From: Oscillospiraceae bacterium
GTDB taxonomy: Bacteria > Bacillota > Clostridia > Oscillospirales > Ruminococcaceae
Direction of reading: 5' to 3'
Length of the DNA: 64,000 bases
NCBI GenBank assembly: GCA_020024615.1
Contig: JAHHTP010000003.1
Span: 4,112 to 68,111 of the forward strand
Numbering within the stretch: the stretch's first letter is position 1; the number at the start of each line of letters is the position of its first letter. Below are positions 16,647 through 42,738 of the stretch, in pieces. The position numbers and the translations under genes were made by a program. The notes beneath the pieces are model-generated. The model had not been told where the DNA came from and ran no database searches. It saw only the letters and a list, made by a program, of their open reading frames with translations.

Positions 16647-18581
16647 ATGGATGCATATTTAAAAGCAATGAAATCTGGACAGAAATACTATCGACATCGC
16701 AGTGCCGAAGGTAAATATCCATATCTGCATGTTCTGGACGAAATGATCACCGAAATTGATATTGTTGCCGAAAACAGCCTGGGAACCATAGAAATTCCAA
16801 TGGAGCTGATTGTGGGAACCAAAACGGTTGGCCGTAGAAATGCTTTTGCCGGCAACTTTATGCCGCTTTTGGATCCCAAAACCGAATTTGCAGCCAAATG
16901 GTCGATTTTGTATGAATCACTTGAAACCGAAGGTCTGAATGAACCGATCAAAGCATATGAATATATGGGCTACTTCTATGTACAAGAAGGCAATAAGCGC
17001 GTATCAGTCATGAAATCACTCGGTGCGGTCAGCATTCCTGGCTCTGTCATTCGTCTGGTTCCGGAGCGTACCGAAGGCAAATTAAATCGGATTTATTATG
17101 AATTTCTGGATTTCTATAAAATTACTGGCGTCAACTATCTGATTTTCCACCATGAGGGTGGATATACCAAACTGATGTCAATGCTGCCGTATACTACTAC
17201 GAGATGGACTTCTGAGGAACGCGGAGATTTCAGAAGTGTATACTCCATCTTTACAAAAATGTTTTATGAATGTGGTGGCGATAAGCTAACCGATGTATCA
17301 CCTGCTGATGCTCTGGTGCGCTATATGCAGATTTATGGCGGTTTTTCCATTCTGCATAAACAAACCAGCACTGAGATTAAAAATGCACTTAATCTGATGT
17401 GGAAAGAAATCATGGCACTTCAACCGCATGAAGCCGCACAGTTTTCCATGCAGCCGGAGAATTTTGACAAAAAAAATAATTTTATCGCTGGTATGTTCGG
17501 AGAAAATAAACCCAAACAAATTACAGCAGCTTTTATTTTTTCTGGTACTTCCCAAAATTCCAGCTGGAATTACGGACATGAGCTTGGTCGAAAAACACTC
17601 GAACAGGAGTTCCCTGCCAAAATGCTGGTCACAAAGGTTTACGATAATGCTAATATGGACAATATCGAAGCAAAAATTGACCAGGCGATAACCGACGGCT
17701 GTAATGTAGTGTTCACCACCAGTCCTATTTTCCTGCACACTACCTTAAAAACAGCGCTCACCTATCCAAATATTAAGTTTTTAAATTGCTCCCTCAATAC
17801 CAACCATCCGACCATCCGCACCTATTATGCCAGAATGTATGAGGTAAAATTCCTGCTTGGTATTATTGCTGGTGCGATGACCCAAACCGGCAAGGTAGGC
17901 TATATCGCCAATTCCCCGATCGTTGGAGAACTTGCCAATATCAATGCATTTGCCATTGGTGCAAGAATGGTCAATCCAAATATCGAGGTTCGGATTGACT
18001 GGTATGGTATCGTTGATAACAATCCAGAGCAGAATCTAATTAATGCTGGTGTAGACCTGATTTCTGGCAAGGATTGGATCGTTCCAGAATCACAGGACAG
18101 ACATTTCGGTCTTTACGAACTGAACAGCGATAAACCTAACATTGCAATGGCAATGCTTAACTGGGGAGATCTGTACGAAAAAATGGTGCAGTCTATTCTA
18201 GATGGTAATTGGGAGGATGAGGCGAAATCCAAGCGCGCAATTAACTACTGGTGGGGCATTTCATCTGGTGTAGTCGATATCATCTGTGGTTCAAGTGTTC
18301 CGCAAAGTGTGAAACAACTGGTACACATCCTGAAACTGGGGATTGCATCCGGCGTTGTTAATCCGTTCTCTGGCATTCTGCACAGCCATGATGGAGTAAT
18401 CCTCGAAAACGAAAACAGTTTTCTCAAGCCGGAAGAAATATTGAAGATCGATTGGCTTCTAGATAATATTATCGGCAGAATACCGGAATCATCCGAACTT
18501 AATGTAGCCGAGCAGATTAAAATGCGCTTCCAAAGCATTGAACCACTGACCGATGTCAAAGGCAACATTAACTCACAATAA
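16647..18581 (+). CDS. Cytoplasmic fusion protein: ParB/Srx-like N-terminal domain plus BMP (PnrA-like) nucleoside-binding domain
   Basis: The N-terminal segment YEYMGYFYVQEGNKRVSVMKSLGAVSIPGSVI resembles the ParB/sulfiredoxin core (…DG.HR…A.k.lG…iP). The C-terminal half YARMYEVKFLLGIIAGAMTQTGKVGYIANSPIVGELANINAFAIGARMVNPNIEV resembles BMP-family periplasmic binding proteins. There is no signal peptide. Confidence 0.5.
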   Translation: MDAYLKAMKSGQKYYRHRSAEGKYPYLHVLDEMITEIDIVAENSLGTIEIPMELIVGTKTVGRRNAFAGNFMPLLDPKTEFAAKWSILYESLETEGLNEPIKAYEYMGYFYVQEGNKRVSVMKSLGAVSIPGSVIRLVPERTEGKLNRIYYEFLDFYKITGVNYLIFHHEGGYTKLMSMLPYTTTRWTSEERGDFRSVYSIFTKMFYECGGDKLTDVSPADALVRYMQIYGGFSILHKQTSTEIKNALNLMWKEIMALQPHEAAQFSMQPENFDKKNNFIAGMFGENKPKQITAAFIFSGTSQNSSWNYGHELGRKTLEQEFPAKMLVTKVYDNANMDNIEAKIDQAITDGCNVVFTTSPIFLHTTLKTALTYPNIKFLNCSLNTNHPTIRTYYARMYEVKFLLGIIAGAMTQTGKVGYIANSPIVGELANINAFAIGARMVNPNIEVRIDWYGIVDNNPEQNLINAGVDLISGKDWIVPESQDRHFGLYELNSDKPNIAMAMLNWGDLYEKMVQSILDGNWEDEAKSKRAINYWWGISSGVVDIICGSSVPQSVKQLVHILKLGIASGVVNPFSGILHSHDGVILENENSFLKPEEILKIDWLLDNIIGRIPESSELNVAEQIKMRFQSIEPLTDVKGNINSQ

Positions 18582-18598
18582 AAGAGGGGAGAGAAAAT

Positions 18599-19225
18599 AT
18601 GAAAATTCTGGTTTTATCCGATCACGAAAGCCCGGCACTCTGGGATTATTTTGACAAGAAAAAGCTTGCCGGGGTAGATCTGATCATATCCTGCGGCGAT
18701 TTGAAGGCAGAATATCTCTCTTTTCTGGTAACATTTACCTCTGCTCCAGTGCTCTATGTTCACGGCAATCACGATGAGCGTTATGAAAAGCAGCCACCAG
18801 AAGGCTGTATCTGCATTGAAGACAAGATATTTGTATATAACGGCGTGCGAATTTTAGGACTTGGCGGCTCCATGCGTTATCGTCCAGGAAAATATCAATA
18901 CACCCAGGAAGAAATGTTACATCGTGTCAAAAAATTAAAGCTTAAGCTCTGGAAACACAAAGGATTTGATATTCTGGTCACACATTCCCCAGCATTCGGT
19001 CTGAATGACGGTTCCGATTTAACACATACCGGGTTCAAAGCATTTAATATGCTGATTGATGAATATTCACCACATTATTTTCTGCATGGACATGTTCATT
19101 TAAATTATGGCAGAAATCCGAGAATGTGTAAACACGGAAATACCATTATTATCAATGGCTTCGAACGCTATATGTTCGAATACGATCCACTTGCCTTAAA
19201 AGAAGAACAAAAAGAAAGTATTTAA
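18599..19225 (+). CDS. Metallophosphoesterase (YfcE-like)
   Basis: MKILVLSDHES...GDL...GNHDE...HGHVH motifs. Confidence 0.75.
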   Translation: MKILVLSDHESPALWDYFDKKKLAGVDLIISCGDLKAEYLSFLVTFTSAPVLYVHGNHDERYEKQPPEGCICIEDKIFVYNGVRILGLGGSMRYRPGKYQYTQEEMLHRVKKLKLKLWKHKGFDILVTHSPAFGLNDGSDLTHTGFKAFNMLIDEYSPHYFLHGHVHLNYGRNPRMCKHGNTIIINGFERYMFEYDPLALKEEQKESI

Positions 19226-19234
19226 TGTAAAGAA

Positions 19235-19276
19235 AAGGCTGTACCCTGAAAATTGAGGTACAGCCTTCATTTTTAT
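19235..19276. terminator. Bidirectional terminator between convergent genes
   Basis: aaggctgtacc-(loop)-ggtacagcctt followed by catttttat. Confidence 0.5.
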
Positions 19277-19278
19277 AA

Positions 19279-19713
19279 TTAAGCTTTCTCGTATAAATCT
19301 TTTGCAAACGCAACAGCTTTGTTGATATGATCGTCATTCAGCTTTTCAGAAGAGAAGAAGCCTTTTTTCAGAGCAATACCACATTTTCCAACAATTTCAA
19401 CACCGTTTGCTTTCAACATATCCTCAAGTTCCGGAGCATTGCCGGAATCGTCTTTGCCGATTACAACAAGAGCAACGGTAGCTGCTCTTCTCGGAACGAT
19501 CTCTTTGCAGAATGCCATCAGTTTTTTATCCAATTTACCATAGTTTTCTAAAACAAAAAATACTAAAGTCTGACCTTCACACGGATATGCCGGCGGAACT
19601 TTATCACTTTTTACTTTCAGAGCGCGACCCATTGCGGTAGCAATCAAATCCGGATTGCCGTTTACCTCCTCCTCTTTTTTAACCGTATACAATACCTGTA
19701 CTTTTTTTGCCAT
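19279..19713 (-). CDS. Flavodoxin-like fold protein (uncertain)
   Basis: 144 aa whose C-terminal half resembles a flavodoxin fold. No clear FMN P-loop. Confidence 0.35.
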   Translation of the reverse strand: MAKKVQVLYTVKKEEEVNGNPDLIATAMGRALKVKSDKVPPAYPCEGQTLVFFVLENYGKLDKKLMAFCKEIVPRRAATVALVVIGKDDSGNAPELEDMLKANGVEIVGKCGIALKKGFFSSEKLNDDHINKAVAFAKDLYEKA

Positions 19714-19948
19714 CTGATTTTCTCCTTCATGTGCATAATTGGAATTGTGTAATGTAAAAATACAACGATATACCTTTTATATCTTAGCATATTTTCAGAT
19801 AAAAGTCAAAGCAAAAGGCTCAATTTTTTAGAAATATTTCAAAAATATTACAAATTGTTTTCAGATTTCTAAATAAAAAAGCAATATACTGTCTATCGCT
19901 TTATATATTGTTCTGGTATAATAAGGAAAAACAAAAAGGGGTAGACCT

Positions 19949-22213
19949 ATGAATACTTTTTATGTTTCACCACTTGGCAATGACCAAAATCCTGGCAGCA
20001 AAACAGCACCTTTTGCCACCCTGCAAAAGGCAGCAGATAAAGTTTCCAAAACTCCTGCTCAAATCATGGTTACTGCTGGCACCTATTATCTAGATACACC
20101 GCTAACTCTGACAGAAAAGCATAGCCATATCCATTTTATTTCTGAAAATGCCGTGTTAACTGGTGCAAAACCGATTCAAAATCCGGCGATACACTCTTAC
20201 TCGGACACCATCCGATTCATTCAACTAAAGCCACATACGCATATAGACGGATTTTTAATTGATGGAAAACAACAGATGCTCTCTCGTTTTCCAGCCTATG
20301 ATGAAAGCCAGTCATTACAGGGCAGCACCTCTTTGGAGGCGGTAAAACGACGCGCACAAAACTGGACAAATCCACAGACCGGATTTGTCCGCACTCTACA
20401 TGATCGACTGTGGGGCGGCAATTCCTTCACCATCACCGGCAAAGATGATACCGCGCCGCATGGTCTTTCCTTGCACTGGATTGGCGACAATAATCGTGGA
20501 AATGGCATCTATACTGGAAAACATGCCATGGTCGTGGAAAATATTTTTGAAGAACTCCAAAATCCAGGTGAATGGTTTTATGATGAAGTCTCCGGCACTC
20601 TTTATTTTATTCCTCCTAAGGACGCAAAAATGCAAACCTTGCAGGTTGTACAAACCGAATGCCTTCTGCAAGTGTCCGGTGAAGACATCACCTTTGACGG
20701 CTTTACCTTTGAAAACACCGCCCGCACTATGTTTACACAACCCTATATCCCACTGATGCGTGGAGACTGGTGCGTTGCTCGCATTGGCGCAGTGCTGATG
20801 CAAAACTGCAATCATGTTCGACTTCTCAACTGCACCTTCCAAAATATTGGCTCTCACGCCATTTTCATTGATGGACATAACCGCAGAATCACCATTGACC
20901 ATTGCCATATTAAAAATATTGGCGCTTGTGGTATTTTGCTCGCTGGCCACCCAGATTCTTGCCGAGAACCATCTTTCTGGGACAGCATTCCACCATTCGA
21001 AGCAGAAAATGGCTTTGTCCATAAAACCGACATCACCGATACCACAGTAGGCCCTGCAAAAGAGCTGTATCCAAAACATATTAAAATTACCGAAAACCAC
21101 ATTGAAAACATTGGTATCTACGAAAAACAGTCTAGCCATATCGCACTTTCGGTCAGCTTCGATGTCAAAATGCTGCACAACACACTGCACACCGGTCCGC
21201 GTGCCGGTATCAATATCAATGACGGCACCTTTGGCGGACATGAAATTGCCTTCAATGATATTTTTGATATGCAGAAAGAAACCGATGACCATGGCATGTT
21301 CAACTCTTGGGGACGCGATCGTTTCTGGAGCCTTGGCGGATTTGACACCAACGGAAATAATGGTTTAGAAAAATCAAAATATGTAGATCTGGACATCCTT
21401 GCTCCTACTGAAATCCATCATAACCGCATTCATTTTGCCTCACGCTTAGATAGTGGCTCTACCTTCGGTATTGATTTAGATGACGGTTCCAGCCTTTACC
21501 ATATTCATCACAACCTCTGCCTTGGCATGGGAATCAAACTGCGGGAAGGTTTTCGTAGAAATGTACACCATAACATTTTAATCGGTGCGCCGTTTAACCT
21601 GCACTGCACCTACGAAAATTCACAGGATGTTATTACCGAAAATCTCGTATGCTGTGATACTCCGTATGTGCTTGCTGCCACCGATGAACAACGGTTTGCC
21701 GTCAGCAACGATACCATTTCCGGCAACTATTTCACTTCAGCACCAAATCTACCTGCATTCTGGGAAAAAGTCGGATTTGATGCGCCAGTACAAATTGTAA
21801 AACCGATCTTTGCAGATCCAGAGAAAAATGACTATGCTCTGCTTTCTCCAAAGCTAAAAGGTTTTGAACAATTCGGCCATATCGCATATGGTCAGACAAA
21901 CTGTCCAGTTTCCTGTCCACCATATGTTTCACCAGCCGATTCAGCCAAAACACAGACCGCCTTCTGGTTCGGTGCGCAGATATCTTCTCTGGATGATGCT
22001 CTGATGTCCGCAACTGGAGCTGGAAGCAAAGAAGGTGCCTGCATCGTCTATCTATCCCCGCAATGTGAAGTGTCCGCCCGTGGATTACTTAACATGGATG
22101 TTATCCAAAGCATCGGCAATACCCCAATCAAATCGCTTGACGATCTGCTACACACTGCACCGGATGCAGAACCGATCACCATTATTCGCAATCAAAAGAA
22201 AATCACAATCTAA
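19949..22213 (+). CDS. Right-handed parallel beta-helix repeat protein (pectate-lyase-like fold), 754 aa, no signal peptide
   Basis: N-terminus MNTFYVSPLGNDQNPGSKTAPFATLQKAADKV is typical of the PbH1/beta-helix family. Many N/H/G-rich repeats. Confidence 0.6.
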   Translation: MNTFYVSPLGNDQNPGSKTAPFATLQKAADKVSKTPAQIMVTAGTYYLDTPLTLTEKHSHIHFISENAVLTGAKPIQNPAIHSYSDTIRFIQLKPHTHIDGFLIDGKQQMLSRFPAYDESQSLQGSTSLEAVKRRAQNWTNPQTGFVRTLHDRLWGGNSFTITGKDDTAPHGLSLHWIGDNNRGNGIYTGKHAMVVENIFEELQNPGEWFYDEVSGTLYFIPPKDAKMQTLQVVQTECLLQVSGEDITFDGFTFENTARTMFTQPYIPLMRGDWCVARIGAVLMQNCNHVRLLNCTFQNIGSHAIFIDGHNRRITIDHCHIKNIGACGILLAGHPDSCREPSFWDSIPPFEAENGFVHKTDITDTTVGPAKELYPKHIKITENHIENIGIYEKQSSHIALSVSFDVKMLHNTLHTGPRAGININDGTFGGHEIAFNDIFDMQKETDDHGMFNSWGRDRFWSLGGFDTNGNNGLEKSKYVDLDILAPTEIHHNRIHFASRLDSGSTFGIDLDDGSSLYHIHHNLCLGMGIKLREGFRRNVHHNILIGAPFNLHCTYENSQDVITENLVCCDTPYVLAATDEQRFAVSNDTISGNYFTSAPNLPAFWEKVGFDAPVQIVKPIFADPEKNDYALLSPKLKGFEQFGHIAYGQTNCPVSCPPYVSPADSAKTQTAFWFGAQISSLDDALMSATGAGSKEGACIVYLSPQCEVSARGLLNMDVIQSIGNTPIKSLDDLLHTAPDAEPITIIRNQKKITI

Positions 22214-22219
22214 CACTTA

Positions 22220-22257
22220 CCACCTGTGTCCTTCTGGGATGCAGGTGGTTTTATCAT
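22220..22257 (+). terminator. Intrinsic terminator after the beta-helix gene
   Basis: ccacctg-(loop)-caggtgg followed by ttttatcat. Confidence 0.5.
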
Positions 22258-22312
22258 ACCAAAAAGCAGGAAAGCAAAAACTTCCCTGCTTGTCATATCC
22301 ATTGAGCTAGTA

Positions 22313-22948
22313 TTAGTTTTTAAAGAAACTTAAAGCAACCTCTGCTGCACTTGCTGCGTCAGAAGTATAAGCATCTGCTCCGATTTCATCAGCAAATTTC
22401 TGCGTTACCGGTGCGCCGCCTACCATTACTTTTACTTTATCGCGTAAACCTGCTGCTTTTAGTGCCTCAATAATCTCTCCCTGGTTTACCATAGTTGTGG
22501 TTAGCAGTGCAGATAAGCATACGACTTTTGCTCCACTCTCTTTTACTGCTGCTACAATCTTATCTCCGTCTGCGTCTACACCTAAGTCTATGCACTCGAT
22601 CCCAACGCCTTCCATCATCATTTTAACGAGGTTTTTACCGATGTCGTGCAGGTCGCCTTTTACGGTGCAGATTACTGCTTTGCCTACTGGCTCTACTCCC
22701 TCTTTGGTCAGGTATGGTTTTAAGATTGCTACACCCTGATTCATTGCACGTGCTGCAATTAACACTTCCGGAACATATACTTTGTTCTCTTTGAATTTGT
22801 CACCAATCTCTACCATGCCGGAGATTAATCCGTCATTTAAGATTTCTTTTGCAGTGATTCCTTCTTCCAGCGCCTGGTTTACCAGTGCTTTGACATCTTT
22901 TGCTTTGCCTTTCTGAAGCATTTCATTGATCTGAGCGGTAATAGACAT
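22313..22948 (-). CDS. Cobalamin-binding corrinoid protein of a methyltransferase system (copy 1)
   Basis: 211 aa with B12-binding Rossmann motif DLHDIGKNLV (DxHxxG), preceded by a B12-binding_2 helical cap. Start MSITAQ after RBS ggagg. The 5 upstream in-frame codons (MEERT) are RBS read-through. Confidence 0.8.
   Translation of the reverse strand: MSITAQINEMLQKGKAKDVKALVNQALEEGITAKEILNDGLISGMVEIGDKFKENKVYVPEVLIAARAMNQGVAILKPYLTKEGVEPVGKAVICTVKGDLHDIGKNLVKMMMEGVGIECIDLGVDADGDKIVAAVKESGAKVVCLSALLTTTMVNQGEIIEALKAAGLRDKVKVMVGGAPVTQKFADEIGADAYTSDAASAAEVALSFFKN
22313..22948. repeat. 636-bp dispersed repeat, copy A (exact corrinoid-protein CDS)
   Basis: Matches 41915..42550 except for one nucleotide. 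Confidence 0.9.
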
Positions 22949-23042
22949 TGTTCTTTCCTCCATTTGTCATGCCGAACATGCCGGCTTACTTTATTTACAG
23001 CCCCTGCCTTCTGTAAAAAGCAGATAAGCCTAAATACAAAAA

Positions 23043-23723
23043 TTATTGAATCCGTTTTGCGCGCCTGTTCGGACAATCATCCAACGGACAGTACATACAG
23101 TTTTCATAATGTTCTTCGCTTAAAAACTGAATACCCGACATACTCTTGCTCGGAATCATCAAGAAACTTTCCGCATAATACACACCAATCGTCTTCTTGA
23201 TAAAATCATTTCCGCCTAATATGTTAAACTGCAATTCCTCACCAGTAATCGGCCATGCCGCTAAAGAACCCGGATTAACCGCAGCAAGATATTTTTCAAT
23301 CTGATATTCCAATTTCACATAAGTATAATACTCTTTAAACATTTTATCCAGATAGACGATTTTAATCTGATCAGCCCAGTATTCAGCCAACGGATCGTCG
23401 CTGTACCCTGTAGACCAGTCATTCAGCTCTGTACCACAGGTGATAATATACGGAAAACAGCGGTGCTTACCCTTCAGCTTTTCAGCAACAAAAGGAGAAT
23501 CTATCTCAACACCATGAACCTTTACGGTTTTGCTGCTTTCAACCTGAAACACGCCAAACAGTGCCTTCGGATATGCAATCTTTTCTGCTTCAGCAATCAT
23601 ATCAAGAATTTCTTCTTCTGTATCTTCATTGCTGAGTTTCAAAAGTCTCTTGATTTCTGCCTCAGATAACTTGATGTCAGTCAGCTCACCGACATAAAAA
23701 TCCCCTGTTTTCGTAATTTTCAT
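23043..23723 (-). CDS. Methionine-synthase activation-domain-like (Met_synt_B12-type) accessory protein of the methyltransferase cassette (tentative)
   Basis: C-terminal MIPSKSMSGIQFLSEEHYENCMYCPLDDCPNRR resembles the SxSG plus Cys-cluster of small clostridial Met_synt_B12 proteins. Recall-based. Confidence 0.4.
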   Translation of the reverse strand: MKITKTGDFYVGELTDIKLSEAEIKRLLKLSNEDTEEEILDMIAEAEKIAYPKALFGVFQVESSKTVKVHGVEIDSPFVAEKLKGKHRCFPYIITCGTELNDWSTGYSDDPLAEYWADQIKIVYLDKMFKEYYTYVKLEYQIEKYLAAVNPGSLAAWPITGEELQFNILGGNDFIKKTIGVYYAESFLMIPSKSMSGIQFLSEEHYENCMYCPLDDCPNRRAKRIQ

Positions 23724-23753: not shown

Positions 23754-24731
23754 TCAGCCTTTATAATGACGGAATTTCTCCAATGCCTCTAAAATAGCAG
23801 CACAGTTTTCCATCGGAATCTCATAGTTTAATTCTACATTTAAAGATAAACCACCCTGCGGCAGATATAGTGCCTCAACACATTCACCCACATGGTCAAA
23901 TATTTCACTTCTAGTACCAAATGGGAACATCTGACGGTCAAGATCTAAGTTAATCGGAATCAAATGCTCTTTACGACAGACTCTTACCAGATTATCCAGA
24001 CCGTTTGCTCTAAACTGCGGGTTAATCATATCAACACCACACTCCTGCAAATCTGGCATAATCTCATGAATGCAACCATCGGTATGCATGTAAATTAAGG
24101 TGTTTGGATGTACTTTCTTAATCATGCCATACATTTCTTTATAGCATGGTTTCAAGTATTTTCTCCATCTATCTGCACCGATAGCCAAACCGGTCTGAAT
24201 GCCCTGGTCATCACCAAATACAGCCATTTCGGAAAATCTATCCATAATCGACTCAATCTGAATCTTATTGTATTCCAGTACTTTAGAAACTAATGTTTCA
24301 ATTTCCGGACCTTCTTCAGCAAACATGACCATCGCGTTTTCAAAACCAACCAGATCTAATAAGCGCAGATACATAAATCCATGTGGAAGTCTGCCATCTC
24401 TATTCTGCGGAATCTGTAAATCGAATACCTGCTCTGGGTCAGAGATTGGGTGCTCAGTAACAATTGCTTCCATACCTTCGTCAACATTATCCCATACACA
24501 GCCCCACTCATCCACATGACGACCGACTCTGTAAGTGCCAGAAGCAATCAGTTTTGGGTCAGAATAGTCAACCTTATAGTTTTCACCGAAGAACTGTGGA
24601 TACTGTTTTACTAAATACTCAATTTCTTTGCCATGATGAATCCACATAGCCGGCAAAACTGCTACAGTAGTTGGAATTACTTCTGGATACTCCAGACGCA
24701 TAGCCTTTTTAAAATCAACATCACCAAACAT
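23754..24731 (-). CDS. Uroporphyrinogen-decarboxylase (URO-D) family methyltransferase (MtaA/MT2-like)
   Basis: About 325 aa with a URO-D-like TIM barrel. Start ATG 24729-24731 after gagggg. Confidence 0.65.
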   Translation of the reverse strand: MFGDVDFKKAMRLEYPEVIPTTVAVLPAMWIHHGKEIEYLVKQYPQFFGENYKVDYSDPKLIASGTYRVGRHVDEWGCVWDNVDEGMEAIVTEHPISDPEQVFDLQIPQNRDGRLPHGFMYLRLLDLVGFENAMVMFAEEGPEIETLVSKVLEYNKIQIESIMDRFSEMAVFGDDQGIQTGLAIGADRWRKYLKPCYKEMYGMIKKVHPNTLIYMHTDGCIHEIMPDLQECGVDMINPQFRANGLDNLVRVCRKEHLIPINLDLDRQMFPFGTRSEIFDHVGECVEALYLPQGGLSLNVELNYEIPMENCAAILEALEKFRHYKG

Positions 24732-24866: not shown

Positions 24867-25994
24867 TTATTTGCCTGCGTTTTGTGCTTCGATTTTTGAG
24901 TTATATTCATCTACCATCTTTCCAACCAGGCGGATACGCTCAATATCACCGGTGGAAGAAATCTCATCCGAGATACCCAAAATCAAATGCGGTGCGAACA
25001 TATCCAGAATCTTACGGACACAATCCTCTAAAACTTCAACTGGATAGATCGCGTCAAAGTAAACAGCCGGAATGCCGTCGAGTAGGTACATATTGTCGCC
25101 CAACGCCTCGTGCATCTCCTCCAGCGTAACATCGCCCTGCGGAACTGGGGTAATTGCCTCAACACCATCCAGACCCGTTTCCTGATAATACTCCATCAAT
25201 CCACGGTTGTCACCATCAAAATGAGAGCATATAAATTTTCCTGCTTTGTGCAAACGCTCACATCTGAGTTTGTATTCTGGCAGAACATACTCCTCAAATA
25301 GAGACGGAGACAGCGTACCAGAGTGAATATTGTCACCGAAATTGATAATATGAATTGGAGATTCATTGATAACATCAATCAGGCGGAAATGGCACTCACG
25401 CAGTGCGTCAAAATATTCTTCTACTGTTTCCGGATAGTCCATAATTGCATAAATTGCCTGCTCAACACCCATTAAGTCAATATATAAACGCTGAACGGAA
25501 GTTCTTGGCATAAAGATCGTCGGCGCGCCTAAATCACCCCACTCTGCTTTTACTCTGTCAAATGTTTCCTGAGAAAATCCCCAGTTGGTATGCTGCTCAA
25601 TATAGGTGTAAATTTTTAATTCTTCTTCACAGGTAACCCACTCTTTTGTAACAAGTTGTGCCCAGCTATTTGGAGAAACTTTGGATTGGTGCGTAACTGT
25701 GCCAATCGGTGTTTCAATGTAAGTTGTTGTGGTGTCACCTTGGGTTTCATGCCAGGTTTTTACGGTATCATCAAAAATTGGGTAGAAACAATCGTTATAT
25801 TCGTACACACGAGCAGAACAACCAAGGTCTTTATACAGTTCAACCTTGCTCATACCCTCATATCTGCCAGGCAGCTTGCCATCATCAAACATTTTATCAT
25901 CAATCCAGCACTGAATTCTCGGCTGCCAAATTACTTTACCTCCTGCTCTGTCAAAGCAGACATCCTCATGCAATTTTGCAAAATTTGTATCCAT
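24867..25994 (-). CDS. URO-D family methyltransferase (substrate-activating MT1-like)
   Basis: 375 aa, URO-D-like. Start MDTNFAKLH after RBS ggagg (rc at 25992-25994). Confidence 0.6.
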   Translation of the reverse strand: MDTNFAKLHEDVCFDRAGGKVIWQPRIQCWIDDKMFDDGKLPGRYEGMSKVELYKDLGCSARVYEYNDCFYPIFDDTVKTWHETQGDTTTTYIETPIGTVTHQSKVSPNSWAQLVTKEWVTCEEELKIYTYIEQHTNWGFSQETFDRVKAEWGDLGAPTIFMPRTSVQRLYIDLMGVEQAIYAIMDYPETVEEYFDALRECHFRLIDVINESPIHIINFGDNIHSGTLSPSLFEEYVLPEYKLRCERLHKAGKFICSHFDGDNRGLMEYYQETGLDGVEAITPVPQGDVTLEEMHEALGDNMYLLDGIPAVYFDAIYPVEVLEDCVRKILDMFAPHLILGISDEISSTGDIERIRLVGKMVDEYNSKIEAQNAGK

Positions 25995-32972: not shown

Positions 32973-33533
32973 CTATTTAGTAATCATCGAAATGCCATAT
33001 TCCAGACCGCTCTTGTCGATCATGCCCTGTCGATAACTGCGAAGATAACCTTCTTCATCCACAAAGTAGGTGGTCGGCATGCTCATAACTTTATAAATTC
33101 TTGCCGCGTCTATATCCAGATCATAATAAACCGGGAAAGTAAATTTAGCCTGTTTCACAAAAGTTTCTGCTGTACTCTGAGTTTCTCGCATTCCGTCGGT
33201 CATATTCACCATCATAAACACAACTTCATCGCCGTATTGCTTGTATGCTTCCTCAAAATCCGGCATCTCATGCTGACACGGACCGCACCAGCTTGCCCAG
33301 AAATTGAGAACAACCGGTTTTCCCTTGAAATCTGACAGACTTACTGCATTCCCATCCTTATCATAAGCCGTAAAATCAGGTGCTTTTACCTGCTGCTGTG
33401 ATTCCCCAGATTGCGATGTCTGTTCCATGTTTGGATGGTAATTCGCTGACAGCTTATCATATAAAATTGCCGCACCAATCAAAACACCAATCAATGCGAT
33501 AATGGATACAATCAATATCACCAGCTTTTTCAT
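32973..33533 (-). CDS. TlpA/ResA-like membrane-anchored thiol-disulfide oxidoreductase
   Basis: Signal anchor plus WASWCGPC thioredoxin-fold motif. Confidence 0.8.
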   Translation of the reverse strand: MKKLVILIVSIIALIGVLIGAAILYDKLSANYHPNMEQTSQSGESQQQVKAPDFTAYDKDGNAVSLSDFKGKPVVLNFWASWCGPCQHEMPDFEEAYKQYGDEVVFMMVNMTDGMRETQSTAETFVKQAKFTFPVYYDLDIDAARIYKVMSMPTTYFVDEEGYLRSYRQGMIDKSGLEYGISMITK

Positions 33534-35471: not shown

Positions 35472-35779
35472 TTAATCCAGCAGTGTCAGAATGCGCTGTT
35501 TCGGTGCTGCACCAACCATCTGGTTTACAACCTTACCGTCTTTGAGTACAACTAAGGTCGGGATGCTCATAACGCCGAACTTTGCTGCAAGCTCGTTTTG
35601 CTCATCCACATTTACTTTGCCGACCAGATACTGCGGATTCTCCTCAGCGATCTCGTCAACAATCGGGGATACCATACGACACGGACCGCACCAGCTTGCC
35701 CAGAAGTCCAGCAAAACAGGTTTCTCGCTGGTTAATACCTCAGATTCAAAATTTTCATTATTTACAGTTAATACAGACA
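35472..35779 (-). CDS. trxA: Thioredoxin
   Basis: 102 aa: MSVLTVNNENFESEVLTSEKPVLLDFWASWCGPCRMVSPIVDEIAEE... Start at MSVL with RBS aaagga 9 nt upstream. The longer ORF is N-terminal read-through. Confidence 0.85.
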
Positions 35780-39773: not shown

Positions 39774-40844
39774 TTAAAACTTCTCGCAATACTCTTTGCA
39801 TGCCTCGATATAGGCAACAACATTTTCAACTGGAACTTCTGGCTCCAGTATATGGGTTGGGCAAATCAACAATCCGCCTTTTCTACCTACCATATCCAGA
39901 TAATGGAATACTGTTTCTCTGATTTCTTTTGGTGTACCAAATGGCATCAGCGTCTGGGTTCCCAGTGTACCGCAGAAGGAAATGCGATCACCGTACTCCT
40001 TATGAATTTCTTCAAAGTTCATGCTTTCCGGCTGAATTGGGTTGAGTACATCTACACCTGCTTCAATCAAATCCTCAATAAATGGGGTAACATAGCCACA
40101 GCTGTGATAGAATACAACCAATTCCGGATTAATTGCTTTCGCCGCATCAATAATCGCTTTCAAACGCGGCTTTATATAGGTACCGTACAGTTCCTTGCTC
40201 ATCATGATCGAGGACTGCATGCCGATATCATCGCCTAAATAAATGCCGTCCGCACCTGCTTTGGCAAAATTCACTGCATTGATCATCGAGTTGGCAGTTA
40301 CCTTGTCCAATACAAAGTTTGCAAGTTCCGATTCTGACATCATGTCCATCATCAGCATTTCCATGCTCCTTGCGTACCATGCAGTTTCCCAGATGGTACA
40401 CTGCATATTACCCATCGCAAAACGGCCAGCTTTATGTGCTTGTTCAACAGCAGCGATCTGCTCTGGAGTAGGTCCCTCGATGTACTCCGGATATGGATAT
40501 GCCTTCAGTTCACTTAACTCAGTCATTTCCTCCAGTGGGTGATACATACGCGTCATATGGAAGCAAGCTGCACTACCCGGTTCATTCGCAACACCATACT
40601 GATTAAAGGTTGTACCACCCTTAAAATCATGCGAATACTGTTTTTTCCAAAACGCATCATCACGCGGCTCTTTTACACCACTCCACGGAATGTCTGCAAA
40701 TGCCCTGACTGGTGGAACATAACCAGTTTCCTTACAATACTTCTCAAATCTGTCTGCAAGGTCAGGCGTCATGCTAAACTCAAACGGCATACGCTCATAA
40801 CCTTTGCGTCTTACCAGCGATATAAGATTCTCTCTGTCTGTCAT
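39774..40844 (-). CDS. URO-D family methyltransferase (MtaA/MT2-like), cassette 2
   Basis: 356 aa, URO-D-like. Start MTDRENLISLVRRKGYERMP after RBS ggaggg. Confidence 0.7.
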   Translation of the reverse strand: MTDRENLISLVRRKGYERMPFEFSMTPDLADRFEKYCKETGYVPPVRAFADIPWSGVKEPRDDAFWKKQYSHDFKGGTTFNQYGVANEPGSAACFHMTRMYHPLEEMTELSELKAYPYPEYIEGPTPEQIAAVEQAHKAGRFAMGNMQCTIWETAWYARSMEMLMMDMMSESELANFVLDKVTANSMINAVNFAKAGADGIYLGDDIGMQSSIMMSKELYGTYIKPRLKAIIDAAKAINPELVVFYHSCGYVTPFIEDLIEAGVDVLNPIQPESMNFEEIHKEYGDRISFCGTLGTQTLMPFGTPKEIRETVFHYLDMVGRKGGLLICPTHILEPEVPVENVVAYIEACKEYCEKF

Positions 40845-40862: not shown

Positions 40863-41819
40863 TTATTTGTAGATGCCTTCTTCCCACCAAATGCGGTTCA
40901 TCAGCTCATAACGCTCCAATTCCATACCAGTGTATGCACAGTTGGAAGTGCAGAAGATATACCCCCAGCCGTTCATACCGTCACGCAACGAACGACGAAC
41001 ATCAGCAATAACTTCTTCATCGGTACCAGTCTGCAACAGACCACAGTTTACATTGCCGCAGAGAGCAACTTTATCACCATACAAGCGTTTTATTTCTGCT
41101 AAATCAACACCGCCCTGTGGGTCAAGCGAATGCAACGCGTCCGGATGACACTGAACCATCTGATCAACAATCGGCATAATGTTACCATCGGTATGTTTGA
41201 TGGAGTAGAAACCCTGATCATGATAGCCCTTAATAACATCATGCAGATATGGCGTAATATACTCAGAGAACATATCCGGAGTAAAGTACGGATTGACATT
41301 AAAGCAGTAGTCGGAGCAGAGGCAGAAACCATCCAATAAACCTTTGTGTTTTGCCATCTCCTCACCGAAAGCAAGTGCATGCTCCATGTTGCGCTGTGCT
41401 TCTGCTTTTAAGCCGTCCTCATCCTCGTACATTCTTGCGGTAAAATCAAACATGGAATCACCGTCCGGCATAGCAAAAGTCGGGTCACCGTGCATCATGG
41501 TGTAATATTTATCACCGGATTTTTCACGGATCGCTTCAAGCAGACGGACTGCACCATCAATCCCGCCCGGATTCGGATGAACAAAAATCGCACTGTGGTG
41601 ATATTTTTCAGCAATTCGAATATAGCTTTCAGCCTGATATTCAAAATGCTTTTTCTGCTCGGATTTGCTCATCTGATTCCACTGGCCGAAAGCCATTTGT
41701 GCCGGATGAATCATACCGATGGACTCCAAAGTTAAAAAGAAAACCAGTTCAAAAGTCGGGCAATGACCTTCAATTGGCTCTCGTCTCAATGCTTTGATAA
41801 AGCGTTCACGTTCAGTCAT
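40863..41819 (-). CDS. URO-D family methyltransferase, cassette 2
   Basis: 318 aa, URO-D-like (MTERERFIKALRREPIEGHCPTFELVF...). Its stop lies 4 nt before the start of the next gene. Confidence 0.7.
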   Translation of the reverse strand: MTERERFIKALRREPIEGHCPTFELVFFLTLESIGMIHPAQMAFGQWNQMSKSEQKKHFEYQAESYIRIAEKYHHSAIFVHPNPGGIDGAVRLLEAIREKSGDKYYTMMHGDPTFAMPDGDSMFDFTARMYEDEDGLKAEAQRNMEHALAFGEEMAKHKGLLDGFCLCSDYCFNVNPYFTPDMFSEYITPYLHDVIKGYHDQGFYSIKHTDGNIMPIVDQMVQCHPDALHSLDPQGGVDLAEIKRLYGDKVALCGNVNCGLLQTGTDEEVIADVRRSLRDGMNGWGYIFCTSNCAYTGMELERYELMNRIWWEEGIYK

Positions 41820-41914
41820 GATATTCCTCCATTGAATATAAATTTATAATTGCCTCGAAAATTGCTGCCGCCAAAAGACGGCAGCAAACTGCTTTTTACA
41901 ATCTAAAAATTATT

Positions 41915-42550
41915 TTAGTTTTTGAAGAAACTTAAAGCAACCTCTGCTGCACTTGCTGCGTCAGAAGTATAAGCATCTGCTCCGATTTCATCAGCAAATT
42001 TCTGCGTTACCGGTGCGCCGCCTACCATTACTTTTACTTTATCGCGTAAACCTGCTGCTTTTAGTGCCTCAATAATCTCTCCCTGGTTTACCATAGTTGT
42101 GGTTAGCAGTGCAGATAAGCATACGACTTTTGCTCCACTCTCTTTTACTGCTGCTACAATCTTATCTCCGTCTGCGTCTACACCTAAGTCTATGCACTCG
42201 ATCCCAACGCCTTCCATCATCATTTTAACGAGGTTTTTACCGATGTCGTGCAGGTCGCCTTTTACGGTGCAGATTACTGCTTTGCCTACTGGCTCTACTC
42301 CCTCTTTGGTCAGGTATGGTTTTAAGATTGCTACACCCTGATTCATTGCACGTGCTGCAATTAACACTTCCGGAACATATACTTTGTTCTCTTTGAATTT
42401 GTCACCAATCTCTACCATGCCGGAGATTAATCCGTCATTTAAGATTTCTTTTGCAGTGATTCCTTCTTCCAGCGCCTGGTTTACCAGTGCTTTGACATCT
42501 TTTGCTTTGCCTTTCTGAAGCATTTCATTGATCTGAGCGGTAATAGACAT
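41915..42550 (-). CDS. Cobalamin-binding corrinoid protein (copy 2). Its 211-aa product is identical to copy 1.
   Basis: The DNA matches 22313..22948 except 22322 A versus 41924 G (synonymous). Flanks are unrelated. Confidence 0.8.
   Translation of the reverse strand: MSITAQINEMLQKGKAKDVKALVNQALEEGITAKEILNDGLISGMVEIGDKFKENKVYVPEVLIAARAMNQGVAILKPYLTKEGVEPVGKAVICTVKGDLHDIGKNLVKMMMEGVGIECIDLGVDADGDKIVAAVKESGAKVVCLSALLTTTMVNQGEIIEALKAAGLRDKVKVMVGGAPVTQKFADEIGADAYTSDAASAAEVALSFFKN
41915..42550. repeat. 636-bp dispersed repeat, copy B
   Basis: Matches 22313..22948 except for one nucleotide. Confidence 0.9.
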
Positions 42551-42738
42551 GATTTTTTCTCTCCTCTTTGTCTTTCTTTTTTGATAAAGTCTGCTCTCCT
42601 ACGCTTTATTTCTGCAAAGAAAACAAGCCAGTGTACAGCTTTACTTTATATAAGGTCATTGTAACATATGTATTTACAAATGTCAATGCACTTTAAAAAA
42701 ATCACAAAAAAGTTAAGGCAAGATTAGAAAATGCACCA

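Follow-up and report, generated by a model that had tools for sequence, protein, structure and literature searches.

The window, by which we mean the entire stretch of 64,000 nucleotides from an Oscillospiraceae bacterium that was analyzed, contains two copies of a corrinoid protein (CoP) gene that are identical at all but one position and whose identity starts and stops with the coding sequence. The genome truly carries both copies with these exact boundaries. Comparison with related genomes indicates that the copy at locus B is ancestral and that the copy at locus A is a lineage-specific gain. We favor, with a probability of roughly 0.58, an account that combines a real repeat, an ancestral copy B, a gained copy A, continuing gene conversion between the two, and a carrier protein that serves two pairs of methyltransferases.

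Extent and Identity of the Repeat

Positions 22313-22948 and 41915-42550 match at 635 of 636 nucleotides. Both stretches lie on the minus strand as direct copies 19,602 bp apart, and each is a complete reading frame of 211 codons from start to stop codon.

CoP_A, 22313..22948, minus strand: coding sequence of a 211-aa corrinoid protein; derived copy, last gene of operon A
CoP_B, 41915..42550, minus strand: the same 211-aa coding sequence; ancestral copy, first gene of operon B
Only difference between the copies, 22322 (A) versus 41924 (G), minus strand: in the sense of the gene, T in copy A and C in copy B

The single difference is synonymous (Phe209, TTT in copy A and TTC in copy B) and falls at gene position 627, 10 nt from the 3' end; the initial annotation had described it correctly to the base. 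That annotation had also stated that identity is confined to the coding sequence and that the flanks are unrelated, and this is borne out: ungapped identity over the 200 nt outside each end of the repeat is 24.5% and 30.5%, which is the random level, and the first base beyond the repeat differs between the copies at either end. Gapped and local alignments of the flanks of A and B gave nothing above background when compared with shuffles (p=0.11 and 0.06), and they were no better than alignments with ribosome-binding-site regions taken from 34 other genes in the window. Nor did the flanks of either copy align above background with the flanks of CoP genes in relatives, in local and global alignments judged against shuffles and 34 control upstream regions, but UTRs of relatives that are true orthologues fail to align as well, so that a test of flank homology is powerless at such distance.

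An ordinary segmental duplication moves a block that carries flanking noncoding or neighboring sequence with it, and the A/B pair carries none. The 5' edge of the repeat shows zero erosion. The GC and GC3 contents of CoP are ordinary for the window, with no sign of foreign origin, and a comparison of the whole window with itself found no other long repeats. A direct repeat of 46 nt with 87% identity (33275-33320 and 35678-35723) lies in the region of two thioredoxin/redoxin-type genes and probably reflects a conserved active-site segment of these paralogues. Copy A also offers an in-frame ATG at 22963, five codons ahead of the common start, which is itself preceded by a GGAGG at a distance of 8 nt; gene callers may consequently predict 216 aa for copy A but 211 aa for copy B, which would mask the identity at the protein level.

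The CoP translation matches PF02607 at 77.5 bits (cutoff 23) and PF02310 at 88.8 bits (cutoff 32.1), in an architecture of an N-terminal B12-binding_2 helical cap and a Rossmann-like B12-binding domain. The DxHxxG motif, which holds the lower axial histidine ligand, is present as GDLHDIG. The best match in the PDB is 1y80, the Moorella cobalamin-binding protein (E=1e-55), followed by methanogen MttC and MtmC, and scores fall below the curated NCBIfam cutoffs (TIGR02370, 195.9 vs 215.3; MtgC models, 211 vs 370). CoP is thus a methyltransferase-cognate corrinoid protein of the MtaC/MtbC/MtgC type that belongs to the broad family and lies outside every named substrate-specific NCBIfam subfamily.

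Evidence from Independent Read Assemblies

An assembly collapse artefact had been raised as an alternative in the initial annotation, and the read graph leads us to reject it. We used Logan, an independent k=31 assembly of public read sets, and retrieved contigs of SRR14298101 by exact-protein look-up. Three such contigs (L182, L183, and L184) match the window at 100% identity. L182 spans 32859 to 22919, includes the p226/CoP_A junction, and breaks off 30 nt (k-1) into the 5' end of CoP_A; L184 spans 16949 to 22352 and breaks off 40 nt into the 3' end of CoP_A; and L183 begins at 41954, which is 40 nt inside the 3' end of CoP_B. These 40 nt are the 10 nt up to the single difference plus k-1. 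The T and C alleles are found in separate read-graph contigs (L184 and L183, respectively), each joined to its own flank. Since the graph breaks at the predicted k-1 points and both alleles occur with their own flanks, this is a true two-copy repeat and not a collapse. Logan contigs cover three of the four repeat junctions; the GH3 contig ends at 44412, before the promoter/CoP_B junction, which is the ancestral context seen in relatives.

Further evidence comes from another strain in another sample. L001, an 893-bp contig of GCA_003704445.1 that is 99.3% identical to the window, was the only match in an exact-protein look-up of CoP. Its first base is the A of the ATG, and it extends 257 nt into the 3' flank of locus A, so that a second sample contains the repeat's 5' edge as well as the junction of copy A with its 3' flank.

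It could still be argued that the repeat was collapsed or mis-joined in assembly, or that polishing overwrote one paralogue with reads of the other, given that the public contig crosses a 636-bp repeat that a k=31 graph cannot resolve and that k-mers alone cannot pair 5' flanks with 3' flanks. We regard such an artefact as very improbable, not only because of the junctions, the separated alleles, and the second assembly described above but also because the flanks, as paired in the window, retain the two ancestral adjacencies found in relatives; the alternative pairing would leave the 19.6 kb between the copies as a separate circle of chromosomal-type genes.

RecA recombination between the direct copies would delete or excise the interval that contains ABC-FtsX, DsbD, thioredoxin, Band7, MATE, and operon A. 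In a short-read graph, such an excised-interval state would be indistinguishable from a two-copy chromosome.

Genomic Context of the Two Copies

On the minus strand, locus A reads MATE transporter, MT_A2, MT_A1, p226, a 94-nt spacer, CoP_A, and a terminator. Contigs of related genomes are designated here by L numbers.

MT_A2, 24867..25994, minus strand: URO-D-like methyltransferase of 375 aa; 73% aa identity to L089
MT_A1, 23754..24731, minus strand: URO-D / MtaA-CmuA-like methyltransferase of 325 aa; 82-90% aa identity to L088, L089, and L091
p226, 23043..23723, minus strand: protein of 226 aa, like the methionine-synthase B12 activation domain; operon A
p226/CoP_A spacer, 22949..23042, minus strand: 94 nt, with GGAGG at 22957-22961; no terminator called inside
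Terminator-like hairpin, 22264..22291, minus strand: closes operon A after CoP_A
Terminator-like hairpin, 22219..22249, plus strand: belongs to the convergent beta-helix gene (19949-22213)

Distant homologues of p226 contain PF02965 and go by the name "vitamin B12 dependent methionine synthase activation domain" protein; the p226 of the window itself has no Pfam match. With 58-59% aa identity to its orthologues, compared with 82-90% for MT_A1, p226 evolves much faster than its operon partners. Beside locus A, a block of genes for Bmp, Metallophos, and a 144-aa protein (16647-19713) is inverted relative to L088 (15726-19397) and L089 (4868-7904), and the DUF1538 and P-II genes of L088 are missing.

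Locus B consists of a promoter, CoP_B, a 95-nt spacer that bears a hairpin, MT_B1, and MT_B2.

Sigma-70-like promoter, 42658..42686, minus strand: TTGACA-17-TACAAT with TG, 11/12, near-consensus; ahead of CoP_B
G+C-rich hairpin, 41862..41887, strand not assigned: in the 95-nt CoP_B/MT_B1 spacer; a possible attenuator
MT_B1, 40863..41819, minus strand: URO-D-like methyltransferase of 318 aa; 84% aa identity to relatives
MT_B2, 39774..40844, minus strand: MtaA/CmuA-like methyltransferase of 356 aa; weak match to PDB 4ay7 (MtaA)

Between the two loci the methyltransferases share 22-26% aa identity, in agreement with the earlier description of them as highly divergent. When locus B of the window (41820-41914 and 42551-42738) is compared with L082 (1037-2852) and L086 (7800-11654), genes of the relatives are found to be absent on both sides of CoP. 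Upstream of CoP_B a TetR-ABC-ABC2 block is missing, and downstream the 329-aa URO-D methyltransferase that in relatives lies between CoP and MT318 is missing. CoP_B is therefore located between two lineage-specific deletions.

Origin of the Copy at Locus A

The closest homologs of CoP, with 85-91% aa and 77-78% nt identity, are encoded on 16 contigs (L082-L087 and L092-L101), all in the context of locus B, where the gene is accompanied by an ABC2 permease, MT329, MT318, and either MT355 or an ABC-FtsX transporter. Two of these contigs, L086 and L087, share synteny with the window over a stretch that extends from YitT and the sulfatase through ABC-FtsX, DsbD, redoxin, and Band7, at 58-84% aa identity. 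A scan of a genome collection gave, among the matches listed, identities to CoP of at most 71%, and the 5' end of the coding sequence gave no exact match in JGI metagenomes.

Orthologues of locus A are available from three related lineages, namely L088, L089/L090, and L091 (MT_A1, 82-90%; p226, 58-59%), and in all of them CoP is absent downstream of p227, the orthologue of p226. In L088, which derives from the same genome as L086, p227 is followed by 45 nt and then by the end of the beta-helix gene; L089 and L090 have other genes after p227; and L091 continues for 285 nt after p227 without a CoP start. The presence of CoP at locus B in every related contig recovered, together with its absence from the orthologues of locus A, indicates that copy B is ancestral and that copy A is a lineage-specific gain copied from it. 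The initial annotation had assumed that two old paralogous loci are being homogenized, and this assumption is contradicted by the CoP-less orthologues in all three lineages.

In pairwise identities of MT_A1 and p226, the window groups with L089 and L091, with L088 outside, and under this grouping one gain on the branch of the window is simpler than at least two losses. In more distant homologues of MT_A1 (55-75%), the methyltransferase gene is often preceded by a different CoP with 58-62% identity, so the copy at locus A is not the native partner of this family. In L091, the orthologue of MT_A1 (169-1539; about 88-90% aa) has an AraC-type HTH domain joined to its N terminus, which makes the 456-aa product a methyltransferase-regulator fusion.

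Gene Conversion and Alternative Explanations

Several features of the two copies bear on how they have remained alike. At gene position 627, orthologues and copy B have C, and copy A and L001 have T. Because the T is derived and common to copy A and L001, the duplication is older than the split between the strains. L001 differs from the window by four synonymous changes in the coding sequence (positions 306, 348, 453, and 487; C, G, A, and C in the window and T, A, G, and T in L001) and at two sites in the flank. At all four of these coding sites copies A and B of the window are the same, a 4:0:0 branch pattern that is based on one fragment of 893 bp from one other strain. In the absence of conversion, all four changes must have fallen on the branch of L001, for which the probability is (1/3)^4 = 0.012, or about 0.06 if the L001 coding sequence is a collapsed mix of the two copies of that strain. 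The probability that the sole difference between A and B would fall within 10 nt of an edge under random placement is 20/636 = 0.03. Copies A and B are 99.8% identical, compared with 77-78% nt identity to orthologues, and relatives have no copy at locus A. Identity is thus confined to the shared segment and the surviving difference lies at its edge, as is expected of concerted evolution.

These patterns are suggestive of ongoing gene conversion, confined to the homologous segment, that keeps the copies identical (p about 0.01-0.06). A copy of CoP_B was added in the lineage of the window as the terminal gene of operon A. Because A and B are homologous over the coding sequence only, conversion could act only within it: RecA-type intrachromosomal conversion would keep the interior identical and stop at the bounds of the coding sequence, and one difference would survive at the extreme edge, where conversion tracts would abort. 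With near-identical copies and one difference there is no mosaic signal, and no conversion tract is directly visible. The conversion or concerted evolution posited in the initial annotation has therefore gained an old edge-located difference and the pattern against a second strain, at a level that is suggestive only.

The exactness of the ends invites other explanations. An older and larger duplication with decayed flanks would be expected to show synonymous differences near both ends, and the uneroded 5' end argues against it. A possible but doubtful alternative is that CoP_B was copied fairly recently and only once, exactly from start to stop codon, to a position behind p226, with no conversion since and with the single difference as the first mutation after the duplication. 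The near-complete identity and the loss of homology from the first outside base agree with such a history, as does the absence of copy A from all sampled related lineages; among 5.8 billion proteins, no homologue of p226 has an identity above 59% and below 100%, which leaves no intermediates for dating the event. Random breakpoints, however, would land on both ends of the coding sequence with a probability of about 1e-4 (the spacers are 188 and 95 nt), the copy predates the 0.7% strain split and yet the copies in the window are unchanged at the four sites that vary in L001, and the sole A/B difference is located at the extreme end of the repeat. Furthermore, the sequence around the copies offers no vehicle: the longest k-mers shared around them are at chance level and give no target-site duplication, the self-comparison of the window found no inverted or further repeats around either copy, and no attC-like or cassette site, transposase, or integrase was found beside them, their neighbors being metabolic genes. 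We know of no mechanism for CDS-exact copying. We see only a slim chance that the exact ends are original and that an unrecognized process copied the open reading frame from start to stop behind a pre-existing ribosome-binding site in the other operon; if so, bacteria would have a way of moving bare coding sequences between operons.

In a further alternative, an older corrinoid gene once occupied locus A and its coding sequence was later overwritten by that of B through conversion; this gene would have been ancestral and lost in relatives, or else obtained together with its flanks from a related organism. The spacer and terminator around CoP_A, about 150 nt, have no counterpart in the 45-nt gap of L088, and more distant MT_A1-type loci do have a cognate CoP, both of which would fit an older gene at this position. 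Yet the CoPs of those distant loci lie upstream of the methyltransferase and not after p226, and their identity of 58-62% is too divergent for homologous conversion; moreover, this history needs at least two losses in place of one gain, and there is no leftover divergence at the 5' end of the coding sequence. We therefore find it improbable, and we continue to favor a gain of copy A from copy B followed by continuing conversion.

We also considered a circularly permuted unit of CoP plus spacer on the basis of two collinear 10-mers, AATAATTTTT and AATGGAGGAA, which occur both in the spacer ahead of CoP_A and in the one that follows CoP_B. This candidate was rejected as background: upstream regions of other genes score as well as the two spacers, and their longest common substring reaches 11 nt.

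Functional Implications

Corrinoid methyltransferases of the URO-D superfamily pair around a carrier, with one loading the methyl group onto the cobalt and the other passing it on. The methyltransferases of both loci match the MtaA/CmuA NCBIfam models far below the cutoffs. A substrate assignment for the methyltransferases and p226 was attempted and set aside, as the PDB and NCBIfam gave only weak MtaA/CmuA-type matches; the scope of the UroD superfamily has been described elsewhere (PMC10418091).

In relatives, operon A has no carrier gene in cis and presumably borrows a carrier in trans. With the carrier of locus B installed at the end of operon A, each methyltransferase pair of the window would, judging by operon membership, be co-expressed with the same B12 carrier, which would then serve both. 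The locus thus offers what appears to be a read-validated example of modular rewiring in B12-dependent methyltransferase systems, in which a carrier-less operon gains a copy of a carrier gene and the copies stay identical. If the conversion reading is true, one carrier would work with two unrelated methyltransferase pairs, which predicts cross-compatibility, and concerted evolution of corrinoid proteins would extend from methanogens to gut Clostridia. On the practical side, CDS-exact repeats break short-read graphs at predictable points and should not be dismissed as collapse artefacts.

Comparison with Known Systems

The loci resemble three-component systems composed of MT1, CoP, MT2, and an activator, such as MtaABC and the bacterial O-demethylases, in that a DxHxxG carrier is encoded beside methyltransferases of the URO-D superfamily. 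They differ in that operon A has a protein like the MetH activation domain instead of a RamA/RACE activator.

As a duplicate, the corrinoid gene is most likely a fresh instance of a known phenomenon, of which tuf-like concerted duplicates and the corrinoid genes of methanogens are the precedents. In Salmonella and Escherichia coli, the tufA and tufB genes are duplicates whose similarity is maintained by RecA-dependent gene conversion. That duplication is ancient and found in many genera, and its concerted evolution is proven by phylogeny and experiment, whereas the second copy of CoP is a lineage-specific gain for which conversion is only suggested. The tuf copies are also inverted and far apart, whereas those of CoP are direct and 19.6 kb apart. 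A closer parallel in protein family is found in Methanosarcinales, where concerted evolution is documented for the corrinoid genes mtmC and mtbC, together with mtmB and mtbB (PMC6053082). There, too, a member of the same family is duplicated within the genome, and the duplicates are homogenized by gene conversion (PMC6053082). In the methanogens, however, carrier and MT1 partner have been duplicated jointly to give isozyme operons, whereas here the coding sequence of the carrier is duplicated alone, its copies are part of two operons whose methyltransferases are only 22-26% identical, and the host belongs to the Clostridia and not to the archaea.
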